From assembly GCA_964016885.1 (NCBI GenBank), contig OZ024751.1, positions 37,758,001-37,822,000 of the forward strand: 64,000 nucleotides of DNA, given 5' to 3'. Below, in pieces: positions 1 to 63,743 of this stretch (the stretch's first letter is position 1; each line of letters opens with the position of its first letter). This stretch comes from Eledone cirrhosa. Its lineage: Eukaryota. Under the pieces are notes generated by a model. It had not been told where the DNA came from and searched no databases. It saw only the letters and a list, made by a program, of their open reading frames with translations. The position numbers were made by a program, and so were the translations under genes.

Positions 1-155
1 TTCCTTCAAGGGTATGTCAATATTTGTTTATAAAACTGATCTATATTATATTTTATCTGATGAAAGCGCACCATAATTTGCTTTGGTGTCCTTGAAATAT
101 GTATAATGAAATAAATATGGTTTTATAAATTTAGTTTCCATTTGTTAATATATTA
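1..155 (+). mobile_element. Family B (TA)n-associated HHR element, cut by window start
   Basis: Closely similar to 9925-10075 and 36280-36430; ends in a TA tract. Confidence 0.8.
27..129 (+). ncRNA. Type I minimal hammerhead ribozyme, family B copy 1
   Basis: CTGATGA 57-63; stem II aagcgcacca/tggtgtcctt (64-93, one C-C mismatch); GAAA 94-97; self-complementary stem III atatgtat; AUA cleavage after 105; stem I tattttat/atgaaata, extended by tttataaaac/gttttataaa. Confidence 0.85.
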
Positions 156-288
156 TATATATATATATCAGGATTAATATGTATGGGAATCCATATTTTT
201 CATGAAGTGGTAAGACAATTAAAAGCTCATTGCAATTATACGTGCGTGGATGTAATAGATCAATATATATATATATATATATATATAT

Positions 289-484
289 ATAGGAACAAGT
301 AAGACCCCGACGGCTGAGCTCAAGCCGTTTCGACGGCTAATTCTGGACTGGGTTAGCCGTCGAAACGGCTTGAGCTCAGCCGTCGGGGGTCTTACTTGTT
401 CCTATTACCCACTCTACTACCCTAAGTATTGAGTACTTTGGTGCGTTATGGTCCACCTGGTTCCTTACCACATTTCCTTTGTTA
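289..484 (+). mobile_element. Family A fold-back element with 3' half of an HHR
   Basis: Inverted arms 289-340/353-405, then about 80-nt tail; (TA)n on both sides; GAAA(362-365)-cggcttgagctcagccg-TC(384). Confidence 0.85.
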
Positions 485-791
485 TATATATATATATATA
501 TATATATATATATGTATATATATATACTACAGCTGTCACTCGTAATCGAATGTACCTTGAGAGTATGCATCATGTTTCTTTAAGGGCTTTATTTGCCCAT
601 ACAGTCTGAAGTACTTATGGACATGACCTCCAAGATGCGGTCCTTGATTTTACGGAACATCCCGGTGTGATAGCTGAAAAGTGTGAGGTCTACACCAGCT
701 CTGAAGTCGTACGTTCTTTATTAATACAAAAACAATGAATGTTGTACTTAGAACGCAAAGAACTGAAACGAATACAGCAAAGTATTCTATC

Positions 792-960
792 CGACGTTTA
801 TGATGGTTGGATAACATCCATGAACTTGGTTGCGCATGGTTGGGGATCCAGCTGGATCAGTTGGCTACAGCTACTTCTGACAAGACCCGCTGGAAGGTGT
901 GTTTGAGGACTCAGCCCCCAATGCCCTCTCAGAAATAAGAGGGCGAAGAAAAAGAAAAAG
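792..960 (+). mobile_element. RTE-clade LINE 3' fragment
   Basis: Frame 804-938 reads WLDNIHELGCAWLGIQLDQLATATSDKTRWKVCLRTQPPMPSQK*, like the RTE ORF C-terminus (RW.D.I..L....LGI..........W...L...PP.P); in-frame stop at 801-803; A-rich tail. Confidence 0.65.
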
Positions 961-2470
961 GACTATAAAAATTACAGTAGACATTGTATATTGATATTTT
1001 TCTGTTCAATTTTCTGTAATATGTGGGGTTTTATCAGATATGAGCAAGCACTTTATCTAGTGGGGGTTTCGTTCACTGGGGACGTTTGTCCTGGTGTTTT
1101 CTCTACTCTCTCTCTCTCTCTCTCTCTCTCTCTCTTCTTTTTTGTATACCCATATTGACTTGCTTCATGTTAGCTCAATGACCTGTCTATCAAAAAAAAT
1201 CTTCTTTGCATTATACGGACAAATATTTTCCCTTCATGAAACTACTAGAAAGTGGAACATCAAATAAGACATGCTAACATATAAAATATGTCTGTGTTTA
1301 CATATCTATTTCTCAAAACTTCGTCTAAAACATGTACAGCTTTTCTACACAATACTTATTTGTATATCCATAAGTTTTCATTCATCTATCTATCTAGCTA
1401 TATATATATATATATATATATATATATATATATAGGTATGTGTGTGTAGAGAGAGAGAGATAGTGAGAGAGAGATACATAGATAGAGAGACAGATAGATA
1501 TGTTTTGTATGTGTTCTGGTAAGTATGTGTGTCTGAGAAAGAGGATGAGAGAAAGAGAGAGGGGAGGAACACTGGGTAAAAGAGACAGAGAGAGAGATAG
1601 AGTGAGTGGTTTCTGTGTATAAATGCCCCTATCGTCTATACATCTACCAAATTATCCCCTGTCTCTTCTCTTCTGTTTTTATGTCTTTCTCTGTCATCTC
1701 TTAACATTTCACATAAAACGAAAAATATTTTATTGAAACAGTATATGTCAATTTGTCAAATTACAAAGAAATCCAAGTGATTTGATTTGGTATTAGTCTT
1801 TATGGTTTTCTCTCTTGAAATATTCTTCCATTTGTTTAACTCCTGACTAAGTCTGATAGAAACAGCAGCAGACTATGGTGTAGATAATATTTGCAAGGTT
1901 ATGGATATTTCTTATGATTTCAAACAAGATTAGACAAAAATTGATTTCCTACATCAGAATAAATCTCCATATTTTATAGAGCTACTACATCTTACAATGA
2001 CTGCGGTCTTAATGTCCTCCAGCTAGCAAAACAAAGGAAAGCAAAAGAAATATAGTTTATAAAAGTGAATCCAAAGCGGGTATCTGAGTCATCGCAACGG
2101 GAGCTTTACAGCTTCACCATTGGGTTACCAAGGTTACTTTTCATACTGAATGATGGAAACATTTAAGAAACAATACAACACACACACACACGCCATCAAT
2201 GGAAGACAGGCAGGATGAGGAATTGATGTTGAGAAATCCAGTATATCGTTATGAACACGACAAACGTTTATCTAATACTTCGTAACTTCTCACATAAAGA
2301 CACGATTATATGTAATATTAATGATTTATATAAAATCATAGCACACACGAAATGACAAACACACACACAGATATTCACCCAGCCTCACACACACACACAC
2401 ACATATATATATATATATATATATATATATATATATATATATATATATATATATATATATATATATATAT

Positions 2471-2755
2471 CTAGGGCGGGCAAAATTCCCGAGATCCATA
2501 GACGAGTTCTCTCCAGCGGTCTCTGTCCCTCATTATGGCTGCCATCTCCTGCGTCTCCAAGAGACCAGTGTCTGTCTTTAGGACATCAACATACGTTAAC
2601 CTTGGTCTTCCTCTTCTAGTGTATCCATGCAGGGGCTCCCACAGGAGCATTGAGTGCAGTGTCAACTCTGGATGTCGGTGAGCATGTCCAGCTAACCTCA
2701 GTCTCCTCTGTGACACTTTTGAGCTGACTTTTGGGAGGCTCCTATACAGCTCTGA
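2471..2755 (-). mobile_element. RTE/RTE-X-like LINE ORF 3' end (truncated)
   Basis: ELYRSLPKVSSKVSQRRLRLAGHAHRH...LLWEP...RRGRPRLTYVD...DRDRWR is a typical LINE RT C-terminal region; 3' end abuts (TA)n. Confidence 0.85.
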
Positions 2756-2810
2756 TTCTGTGGACCGTCACTGCCTGATGAAGATCTTACAGGCTTATGG
2801 AATCACAGAT
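2754..2810 (+). mobile_element. Inverted LINE RT fragment
   Basis: DSVDRHCLMKILQAYGITD resembles the (AF)DSV.R..L.KIL.AYGIP motif of LINE RT, on the opposite strand to the adjacent 3' fragment. Confidence 0.65.
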
Positions 2811-2995
2811 AGTGGACCTGATACGCCAGCTCGGATTGCTCGATATCATCGACTGAGCTACTTTTTATTCAAGTCTGCTTCATATTTTTTTATCTCCCTC
2901 TGTCGACCGTGGTGTTACGGACATAACCACAGACACAAACGTAAACATACACACATACTCATACACATATTATATATATATATATATATATAATT

Positions 2996-3488
2996 ATAAG
3001 TTGAAAAAAATGAAAACGAAATTTCATTTCTCACTCTTAGTATGGCACTTACTTTTTTTCATTTTTTCAACTTATCGTTTTCGGTATGCCTGACCGATTT
3101 AACTCACTCAATATGCAAATTAGGCTGCTCAGCCGTTAATTTTCATAAGGAAAGTATATACTTTCGAACGTTCAACTATCTGGCAGATGGGTAAACGGTG
3201 CTGATGATAGCTAACAAGCTTGAAACTAGTACATCGTTCCTGTGTCAGTGTTGAACAAAAAGGTGACGTGGTTGCCTTAACACCGTATGGCATAAATTCA
3301 GGCTGTTCGATTTGTTGACAAACAAACGAACAAAGCAGGCGTTATAATAAACGTCGGCTAAACTGATGCGTGCATATATGTATGTGTACCTGTATGCATA
3401 TGTGTATATATATATATATATATATATGCATGCTACTGTACGTCTGTATACATATATGTATGTACGTATACATACATACTTACATTTA
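2996..3488 (+). mobile_element. Family F HHR element (relative of family E)
   Basis: Homologous to 63099-63564 and 55386-55669; short inversion 2996-3016/3056-3075; TA-rich flanks. Confidence 0.8.
3194..3238 (+). ncRNA. Type I minimal hammerhead ribozyme, family F
   Basis: aacggtg CTGATGA t-agct-aaca-agct-t GAAA ctag TA catcgtt; 7-bp stem I, ACUAGU palindromic stem III, GUA cleavage after 3231. Confidence 0.88.
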
Positions 3489-62107: not shown

Positions 62108-62300
62108 ATTATTTCTACTTTTGGCACAAGGTCAGCAATTTGAAAGTTAGGGGAAAATCGATTAAATCAATACCAGTGAGTAAATAGTAATTTATTATAT
62201 CTGCTCTATGGATGTATGGCAAACCTAACTTGGTAAAGAACCACAACTCTATGCCGCAAACTATGATGTCCGATGATCCACCGATACTGCCAATACATCA
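62108..62300 (-). mobile_element. Degenerate SINE
   Basis: attatttctacttttggcacaaggtcagcaattt is the reverse complement of the SINE 3' end. Confidence 0.65.
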
Positions 62301-62327
62301 CCGTTATGTAATAATTTAATATTAATA

Positions 62328-62688
62328 ATATATATATATATATATATATATATATAATATATATTATGTATTATATATATATATTATATATATATATATA
62401 TATTATATATATATATATATTATGTATTATATATATATATTATATATATATATATATTATATATATATATATATATTATATATATATATATATATATTAT
62501 ATATATATATATATATTATATATATATATATATATTATATATATATATATATATTATATATATATAATATATATATATATAATATATATATATTATATAT
62601 ATATATATTATTTATATATATTATATATATATATTATATATATATATTATATATATATATATTATATATATATATATATATTATATAT
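62328..62688. repeat. (TA)n/(TTA) microsatellite
   Basis: Direct reading. Confidence 0.95.
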
Positions 62689-62913
62689 AAACAATTAAGT
62701 TAAAAATGTACATCCACATATGTATACTGAAATACTAGTATGCATATGAATACACACACGTATACATATGTAGATGTACCGAGTTTTTCACTGGTCACTT
62801 TACTGTGAGTGTCCAGCTATTCTGTATGTAAACACACAGACAAACCGGTTTTTAGAGTCATACTGGTTTTTGAGGAAACACCTTTCCTCTATTCTCCAGA
62901 AAGCCAGACAAGG

Positions 62914-62958
62914 AATATTGGACTAGTTTCGATGTTGTTACATCTCATCAGCAATATT
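62914..62958 (-). ncRNA. Type I minimal hammerhead ribozyme, family E copy 1
   Basis: Reverse complement of 63233-63277. Confidence 0.92.
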
Positions 62959-63232
62959 TACCTATCTTCCGGCCTTTCTAGAGAATCGTAAAAGCACATA
63001 TCGTTATATGCTTTTTCTATGAAAATTAGTAGTGGGCAGACTAATTTGCATAGAGCGTGAGTACGTACCGGTTCAACGGTAAACACACAGACAAACCGGT
63101 TTTTATCGTCTCCGTTGAACCGGTACGTACTCACGCTCTATGCAAATTAGTCTGCCCACTACTAATTTTCATAGAAAAAGCATATAACGATATGTGCTTT
63201 TACGATTCTCTAGAAAGGCCGGAAGATAGGTA

Positions 63233-63277
63233 AATATTGCTGATGAGATGTAACAACATCGAAACTAGTCCAATATT
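63233..63277 (+). ncRNA. Type I minimal hammerhead ribozyme, family E copy 2
   Basis: aatattg CTGATGA gatgt-aaca-acatc GAAA ctag TC caatatt; fully canonical core, GUC cleavage after 63270. Confidence 0.93.
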
Positions 63278-63698
63278 CCTTGTCTGGCTTTCTGGAGAAT
63301 AGAGGAAAGGTGTTTCCTCAAAAACCAGTATGACTCTAAAAACCGGTTTGTCTGTGTGTTTACATACAGAATAGCTGGACACTCACAGTAAAGTGACCAG
63401 TGAAAAACTCGGTACATCTACATATGTATACGTGTGTGTATTCATATGCATACTAGTATTTCAGTATACATATGTGGATGTACATTTTTAACTTAATTGT
63501 TTAAGCGTCAGTCATACAAAAGTGAGTTACAAACGAAACGAAATTTAATTTCGTTTCGTTATTTGTTTTTATCGTCTCCGTTGAACCGGTACGTACTCAC
63601 GCTCTATGCAAATTAGTCTGCCCACTACTAATTTTCATAGAAAAAGCATATAACGATATGTGCTTTTACGATTCTCTAGAAAGGCCGGAAGATAGGTA

Positions 63699-63743
63699 AA
63701 TATTGCTGATGAGATGTAACAACATCGAAACTAGTCCAATATT
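63699..63743 (+). ncRNA. Type I minimal hammerhead ribozyme, family E copy 3
   Basis: Identical motif; GUC cleavage after 63736, 466 nt downstream of copy 2. Confidence 0.93.

Follow-up and report, generated by a model that had tools for sequence, protein, structure and literature searches.

Here, we describe a 64,000-nucleotide stretch of the genome of Eledone cirrhosa (assembly GCA_964016885.1, contig OZ024751.1, positions 37,758,001 to 37,822,000 of the forward strand) – referred to as the window – which carries 12 type I hammerhead ribozyme motifs within repeats inserted in (TA)n tracts. The window is 31% G+C, one quarter of it is masked as tandem repeat, and 9% is (TA)n. The motifs fall into five families, as an initial annotation had proposed: A (cores at 57, 9978, 36328 and 27411), B (54925, 56274 and 56409), C (62951, 63240 and 63706), D (3201) and E (28561). 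Longer copies in the host genome (3.0 Gb, the basis of all genome-wide densities given below) show that families A, B and E, together with a further family, F, are the 3′ ends (pseudo-long terminal repeats, pLTRs) of autonomous Hydra-type Penelope-like elements (PLEs), with the hammerhead 1-2 kb behind the open reading frame (ORF). Families C and D are shown to consist of tandem 466-500-bp repeats that lack an ORF and have a single hammerhead in each unit, and they fit non-LTR retrozymes. We consider it likely that these Hydra-type ends and retrozymes are all (TA)n-targeted PLE insertions, made by priming at two sites and on two strands.

The identification of the motifs as PLE-related type I hammerheads of several (TA)n-targeting families has held up. 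The heptamer CTGANGA is present at all 12 positions and on the strands named in the initial annotation, and by itself it is not enriched (23 sites in the window versus ~19 in shuffles). A strict hammerhead descriptor accepts ten of the motifs, and all 12 when one stem I mismatch is allowed; the comparison with shuffled sequence that the annotation had proposed gave a mean of 0.01 hits and a maximum of one in 100 local dinucleotide shuffles of the window. In every motif, stems I, II and III follow the type I order around the core CUGANGA...GAAA...UH. The imperfect copies are 27411 (one internal stem I mismatch) and 28561, whose first stem I pair is U-U (other copies usually have U-A). Stem III, described earlier as self-complementary, fits this description in every motif once G-U pairs and a single central mismatch are tolerated: it is an exact palindrome in eight, self-complementary with two G-U pairs in three, and pseudo-palindromic in one. 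Counted as insertions, the 12 motifs come to nine, because 56274 and 56409 belong to a single palindrome and the three C copies to a single array.

The core is also conserved in copies located via their 3′ half only, in 30/30 for family A (with all four bases at N7) and 28/30 for family B. In an alignment of family A (25 related rows, one of them on the wrong strand), 95.7% of cells are paired and there are 15 double changes, exceeding 500/500 shuffles, and stem II of family C has a compensatory A-U to U-A swap in three other public runs. Among the best 150 of 563 Rfam rows, family C alone matched a hammerhead model (HH9, 38.9 bits, E 2.5e-6, short of the gathering score of 52); Rfam miRNA matches in the window are microsatellite hairpins with scores under the gathering level. 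All 12 hammerheads are confirmed as real sequence motifs. Self-cleavage is predicted at the H17 sites, where the hammerheads would cut tandem transcripts.

Hydra-type elements and tandem retrozyme-like repeats

Copies joined to an ORF encoding a reverse transcriptase (RT) and a GIY-YIG-type endonuclease, which the initial annotation had suggested seeking, were found for families A, B and E, and the copies of these families in the window are 5′-truncated, inverted ends of autonomous elements. The family B unit is 3.9 kb long with a 1.1-kb 3′ untranslated region, and its ORFs (821, 808 and 775 aa) have hammerheads on both sides. Family B matches often form head-to-head pairs at a spacing of ~110 bp to 5 kb, and in 9/30 loci the end of an endonuclease-type ORF (or its reverse-strand reading) lies ~1 kb upstream of the hammerhead. 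The 821-aa ORF encodes RT followed by a C-terminal GIY-YIG-type endonuclease, with YRDD and Y-x12-Y-x-G motifs as well as RRLRW, HSDKT, CNCRIKNKC (the CxCX5C linker), CNLC (CxxC) and CLH (CxH), and without CCHH; these motifs are common to 11 aligned database homologues. Seven of ten long family A loci contain Hydra-type ORFs, 46% identical to that of family B, and the corresponding protein motifs are CNCRDRSKC, CDLC and CKH. Family E forms a 4.9-kb palindrome (99.1%) with its centre within endonuclease sequence, as well as a hammerhead-ORF-hammerhead tandem, and both E and F are tied to Hydra-type ORFs by tblastn. A Pfam search with the Hydra-type parent protein gave no match even at E 0.1, and Atlas neighbours carry HTH_animal, GIY-YIG and RVT_1. 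The motifs suggest that the parents of A, B, E and F belong to the Hydra clade of PLEs.

There are 28,072 first-look candidates for the family B RT genome-wide. The best 150 scored are all 99-100% identical and 40 of them lie in open frames of at least 800 codons, so family B is young and probably still active.

Family F was overlooked by the initial annotation because its window copies are cut inside stem II. Of 30 family F loci, eight extend to the core, seven of them reading TTGANAA; longer copies also have a long stem III and a Hydra-type ORF. TTGANAA is the U3-A8 core form, a known and active hammerhead variant; a dedicated scan of the window and of loci L001-L019 found no complete U3-A8 core. 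Another family, H, has complete ribozymes in other loci (L069, L075 and L078); its stem III is 16 nt long and terminates the element, and no parent ORF was found for it. At L078, positions 1772-8067 form a nested mirror in which a C arm and an H arm are followed by a LINE-like RT (RVT_1, E 1e-32) and then by H and C arms; insertions accumulate in one another's TA tracts.

Neptune-type PLEs were considered as parents of families A-E and rejected: there are 10,596 candidates identified via Pfam GIY-YIG (CxxxCxxC linker), none of them tied to A-E. These elements are abundant in their own right, with ORFs of up to 938-1096 aa (L060, L061, L063-L065, L067, L074 and L040-L059). One Neptune-type family has a hammerhead ~390 nt past the stop codon and head-to-head copies, and another has a possible U3-A8 core, seen by eye only.

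As far as the parts of Craig et al. 2021 (PMC8557442) drawn on here describe them, Hydra-clade elements insert into (TA)n, carry canonical hammerheads, read DKT for DKG, and have CxCX5C, CxxC and CxH motifs and no CCHH. The elements described here resemble them in having a single ORF that encodes RT along with a GIY-YIG-type endonuclease at the C terminus, an RW-type motif, a hammerhead near the 3′ end, an inverted 5′-truncated copy and a one-sided tail. They differ in length, Hydra-clade elements being generally <3 kb (21 Repbase and six added families) and the B unit 3.9 kb; in their tails (70-140 nt versus 30-40 nt); and in the N-terminal RWK motif, which reads RWT or RWI in family B and RWK in most homologues. 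In the portion of its supplement that we consulted there is a Hydra element from an octopus, and the five short A-E motifs were not found there.

Families C and D are related to one another (75-80% identity in patches), and their motifs recur at a spacing of ~465-540 bp. No Hydra or Neptune coding match was found in the C loci (L020-L039 and L121-L123) or the D loci (L197-L199), and matches of the C and D search to the family E reference are nested repeats. In one C array the two arms carry 15 and at least four units, respectively, and 8/17 units are identical; C units differ by 2.9 within loci versus 16.6 between loci. In the L123 array the variants repeat every four units, which points to local duplication after insertion. 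Folded as a circle, the C monomer has an energy of -158.8 kcal/mol (z -10 relative to 100 shuffles). Family C is also present in public runs of four other organisms (X5, X6, X7 and X10), mostly at 95-99% identity, and X5 and X7 each contain the unit as one 495-496-nt contig; these occurrences may reflect relatives, transfer or environmental DNA. No RNA dataset was listed as containing family C, which says nothing about its expression.

The likeness to published retrozymes (Cervera and de la Pena 2020, PMC7229834; Li et al. 2026, 10.64898/2026.07.22.740005) lies in ORF-less tandems with one type I hammerhead per unit, in a self-paired monomer (for C), in a low GC content, in arrays ranging from dimers to long multimers, and in co-occurrence with PLEs. 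Units of 466-500 bp exceed the 150-450 bp in Cervera and de la Pena and are within the range of Li et al. C and D arrays are head-to-head, lie in (TA)n and have a one-sided PLE-type tail, and the published case for mobilization by PLEs, in the portions of these two papers used here, is made from co-occurrence and pLTR homology rather than from insertion scars. Because C arrays have the PLE-like inversion, tail and TA target, including in 8/8 classifiable pairs, we argue that a PLE enzyme moves them, and C and D would be mobilized by a borrowed enzyme.

Element ends and the route of insertion

The initial annotation had each motif sitting in an element abutting microsatellite, which is correct for element ends and not for 27411, with no (TA)5 within 600 nt downstream, nor for 63240, in an internal unit. 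In the window, the end of the element lies 38-50 nt past the predicted cut site at short A, B and E ends, 136 nt at the tailed B arm and ~240-300 nt in C. Because a random point in the window is within 50 nt of a (TA)n tract in 19% of cases, it is this fixed, family-specific distance and not closeness alone that is evidence for TA targeting. Each family meets (TA)n at either of two fixed ends past the ribozyme, a short one and a tailed one, at ~40 and 130 nt in A, 35 and 125 in B, 17 and 97 in F, 30 and 100 in E, 18 and 88 in H, and 220 and 290 in C.

These two ends are combined in a nearly strict manner. Among 66 head-to-head pairs – a non-random sample of first matches on contig C1 and chosen long pairs, with end-class limits fixed after the data were seen and one H pair counted twice via local duplication – 53 are mixed (one short and one tailed end), two are alike and 11 are unclassified, so that 53/55 classifiable pairs are mixed (binomial p 9e-14 versus independent choice). 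Both like-ended pairs have other insertions between the arms, and copies in the window that look single are accompanied by a small inverted arm consisting only of tail (2996-3053, 9800-9893 and 28448-28510). The partner arm is the best match in 14/15 A pairs and 15/16 B pairs, as expected from one template. A similar hairpin, RCTC...GAGY, recognized by eye, opens the tails of A, B, E, F and H; a search of element ends by regular expression detected it in B and F only, several of the searched ends stopping short of the tail.

One short and one tailed end per pair points to two priming events per insertion. In the two-site, two-strand model, the RT-endonuclease would cut both strands of a TA tract, and each cut end would serve as primer for copying RNA in which the hammerhead site is either uncut or religated, starting at one of two fixed internal positions downstream of the hammerhead. 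Both cDNAs would usually halt early, often at hairpins such as stem II, and then be joined to give palindromes resembling miniature inverted-repeat transposable elements (MITEs). Families C and D would use such a PLE enzyme. Monomers would be released from tandem transcripts by the hammerheads, which, having a short and self-complementary stem III, probably act as dimers or are assisted by protein.

Much of this has a precedent in the Poseidon PLE of Anolis, PAc (Frangieh et al. 2024, PMC11167929), in which cleavage and extension take place on both target strands, the tail is bounded by two internal RT start sites, a dimer is predicted, and the hammerhead cuts only with protein. Targets are AT-rich there also and the hammerhead lies upstream of the start sites. 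PAc differs in belonging to another clade, in its 30-40-nt tail and in having no reported strand bias in the start site, whereas pairs here nearly always combine the two ends. Minimal PLE hammerheads (Cervera and de la Pena 2014, PMC4209133) likewise have a small palindromic helix III and a proposed dimer activity and are massively present in animal genomes; the motifs described here, with stems I of 7-8 bp and long stems II, are nearer to canonical than to minimal hammerheads, and F combines a U3-A8-type core with a long stem III.

Several points count against the two-site, two-strand model and the assignments that go with it, the first being the limits on the pair sample given above. In the portions of PMC11167929 consulted, hammerhead cleavage is dispensable for insertion in vitro and the RT start site does not differ between strands, so that one end of each kind is not predicted by that system alone. 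In family F, identity is 0.954 within pairs and 0.955 between pairs, a comparison without power in this family. The parents of A, B, E and F are placed in the Hydra clade by motifs and not by a tree with named references. No helper of C and D was found by similarity of unit or tail, the best PLE 3′-end match having a z of 2.7 among 32 comparisons, and the C and D tails are without the hairpin seen in the others. Finally, only 3/11 window ribozymes folded have a z below -2, the minimum free energy structures are without the catalytic core, and copy 28561 folds differently.

Because the cDNA crosses the cleavage site, the template must be either uncut tandem RNA or a religated circle, and the second possibility leads to a different account. 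Cleavage and ligation could yield circular monomers (466 nt for C, ~3.9 kb for B), on which RT starting just past the junction would copy the circle repeatedly into tandem arrays on both arms. The long homogeneous C array and its small differences within loci fit this, as do the stable circular fold of the C monomer and the single contigs in X5 and X7, which could be closed loops; retrozyme circles are also known in other animals (PMC7229834). However, tandem DNA yields the same closed loop and read-through RNA, the four-unit period in L123 is a sign of local duplication, and unprocessed RNA is the main substrate of PAc in vitro (PMC11167929). We regard rolling-circle copying as possible, although on balance unlikely.

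Somewhat less probable again is fold-back of a single cDNA, whose 3′ end would snap back at a hairpin and copy itself, with the endonuclease resolving the resulting hairpin duplex at the short, TA-like end, so that one priming event suffices. This would explain why both arms come from one template, the many short pairs with perfect palindromic centres at hairpin hot spots (at a spacing of ~220 nt in B, and inside stem II in F) and the TA or TAT junction at short sites, and Craig et al. (PMC8557442) attribute the tail to endonuclease resolution. However, its fixed order predicts that the tailed arm is always longer, and this order was not found in pairs with a clear spacer (two ambiguous A pairs excluded): the tailed arm is the longer one in 6/8 A pairs and 1/6 B pairs. 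The tail-only inverted arms of the A and E copies at 9800 and 28448 also fit independent priming at the distal site.

A stronger form of the two-site, two-strand model, which we find rather doubtful, is that a still-active Hydra-clade PLE performs an obligate insertion of this kind on hammerhead-made circular RNA, a single enzyme dimer priming a cDNA at each of the two fixed sites and rolling both 3.9-kb units and 466-nt retrozymes into head-to-head arrays. If so, C arrays would be the direct footprints left when a PLE retrotransposes a ribozyme circle by rolling-circle copying, and the process could be rebuilt in vitro with family B as the intact enzyme and family C as the young substrate.

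It is very improbable that all five families are non-autonomous and retrozyme-like, as the initial annotation had it. The window itself is without PLE coding sequence by tblastn with four PLE proteins of the same genome (E<=0.01), no coding sequence occurs in the C and D loci tested, and most copies of A, B and E are short. However, longer copies of A, B and E run into Hydra-type ORFs, with many differing truncation points, which refutes the proposal for these as families; the description stands for C and D (4/12 motifs) and falls for A, B and E (8/12). Mini-palindromes formed at hot spots could nevertheless be transcribed and mobilized as units. We can hardly credit a reading of the palindromes as MITEs or as DNA transposons (having terminal inverted repeats and duplicating a TA target) in which the hammerhead is incidental: short inverted-repeat elements do lie between TA flanks, but their ends are asymmetric by a fixed tail, their arms range from <40 bp to ~2.5 kb, an RT gene's 3′ end makes up the inverted repeat, and both the core and the stems are conserved.

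Abundance and relation to known elements

Exact patterns for the ribozyme 3′ halves matched 26,954 times for A, 14,280 for B, 1,582 for C, 14,104 for D and 8,597 for E, with no control matches for any family. The sum of 65,517, or one per 46 kb, is a floor and counts half-motifs rather than whole ribozymes. Family F has a further 23,267 matches. In 17 arbitrary 10-kb stretches (170 kb) there are eight complete motifs, ~1 per 21 kb (0.03 in shuffles), which scales to ~141,000 hammerheads genome-wide (Poisson range 61,000-278,000), and three of the 17 stretches contain Hydra-type coding pieces. The very large population proposed from the window is therefore borne out, whereas the density of about one per 5 kb is a local high: at one per 5.3 kb, the window has ~4x the density of the 170-kb sample, and is a hot spot of (TA)n-targeted PLE insertions. 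The genome contains many more than five hammerhead families. Further ones occur in other loci, many as head-to-head pairs, and one (J) is linked to a Hydra-type ORF.

Hydra elements, TA targeting, PLE hammerheads, inverted 5′ copies, one-sided tails, head-to-tail non-autonomous PLE derivatives and retrozymes have all been described (PMC8557442, PMC4209133, PMC7229834). The initial annotation's supposition that these families are uncharacterized is supported in that we found no account of A-E, and weakened in that a TA-targeting hammerhead PLE clade is on record (PMC8557442). Nor does the literature consulted – which excludes Repbase, Dfam, bioRxiv supplements and subscription papers – contain an account of a Hydra expansion on such a scale or of PLE-tailed retrozyme arrays. 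An octopus repeat annotation (PMC13282606) names neither Hydra elements nor ribozymes in the sections consulted. The novelty lies in the families and their scale, in the near-strict one-tail rule and in the PLE-type scars on retrozyme arrays.

The density of hammerheads exceeds the coral and axolotl counts in the data taken from PMC7229834, for a kind of element that is known. It suggests that Hydra-type PLEs, which have been described as a small clade and have no Pfam match here, can form a major repeat class easily filed as MITEs or unknown repeats. The route of tandem and inverted PLE insertion, the role of the hammerhead and the mover of retrozymes are treated as open in the portions of PMC8557442, PMC11167929 and 10.64898/2026.07.22.740005 drawn on here. 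With tens of thousands of young insertions, a near-strict end rule, scarred retrozyme arrays and dozens of intact, near-identical ORFs, these questions become testable by counting and reconstitution. Overall, the elements are real and are new members of two known kinds, forming an unusually rich and testable system of moderate interest.

Feature map of the window

The insertions and pieces are collected in Table 1. The ~9 pieces of family F and those of family H were missed in the initial annotation.

Table 1. Hammerhead-bearing insertions, fragments and other repeats; positions are those of the window unless a locus is named.
Feature	Position	Strand	Core and predicted cut	Remarks
Family A short-ended arm	1-152	+	core 57, cut after 105	tailed inverted partner just upstream of the window (locus L002, core 9658, - strand)
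Family D retrozyme unit, ~500 bp	2996-3505	+	core 3201, cut after 3231	internal TA tract; small inverted tail arm 2996-3053
Family A insertion	9800-10070	+	core 9978, cut after 10026	inverted tail-only arm 9800-9893; short-ended arm
Family A diverged subfamily copy	27225-27480	-	core 27411, cut after 27367	with tail; one stem I mismatch
Family E insertion	28448-28641	+	core 28561, cut after 28606	inverted tail-only arm 28448-28510; short-ended arm
Family A head-to-head pair	35945-36425	+	core CTGACGA at 36328 (short-ended arm), cut after 36376	tailed inverted arm, cut inside stem II (to ~36130)
Family B older subfamily, short end	54836-54999	-	core 54925, cut after 54871	
Family B palindromic insertion	56084-56501	both	tailed arm core 56274 (-); short arm core 56409 (+), cut after 56463	arms 99.2% identical; centre a perfect palindrome; 3′ end of Hydra-type PLE with 3.9-kb unit
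Family C retrozyme array	62690-64000	both	core 62951 (-)	inverted short-ended arm 62690-63079; tailed end 38 bases beyond window end, at (TA)n
Family C 466-bp units	63100-63565, 63566-64000	+	cores 63240 (cut after 63270), 63706	
Family F mini-palindrome	292-482	both		3′ half of ribozyme only, cut inside stem II
Other family F pieces	32994-33188, 56871-57063, 50178-50337, 40018-40175, 36458-36523, 49277-49337, 23743-23818, 45503-45592			
Family H mini-palindrome	36779-36963	both		
Other family H pieces	9504-9625, 48243-48355, 28300-28342		decayed core at 9568 (in 9504-9625)	
Family D-like copy, 5′-truncated	55392-55675	-		without core
Family G pieces	9321-9515, 27015-27200, 53051-53246, 43908-43988, 42142-42198, 25991-26057, 62108-62168			without hammerhead
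Further hammerhead families, other loci	L010 6097-9706; L004 459, 1235/1309; L076 919, 5078/5117, 5722; L114 8657/9100; L116 3192			

A (TA)n tract lies inside the family D unit itself (L199; window 3370-3505), so that the element contains a copy of its target; at the corresponding position family C has a TA-rich palindrome that has decayed. The young C insertion has TA-rich flanks of several hundred bases on both sides with similar interruptions (62315-62690, and after 64038), and insertion may lengthen the TA target.

Family G is a dispersed repeat of ~190 bp without a hammerhead, frequent in other loci too and possibly a short interspersed element. An inverted 78-bp pair (32709-32784 and 33215-33292) lies on either side of a family F element. 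There is also a 122-bp direct repeat at 55665-55786 and 57345-57464, and a 129-bp tandem duplication at 8759-9013.

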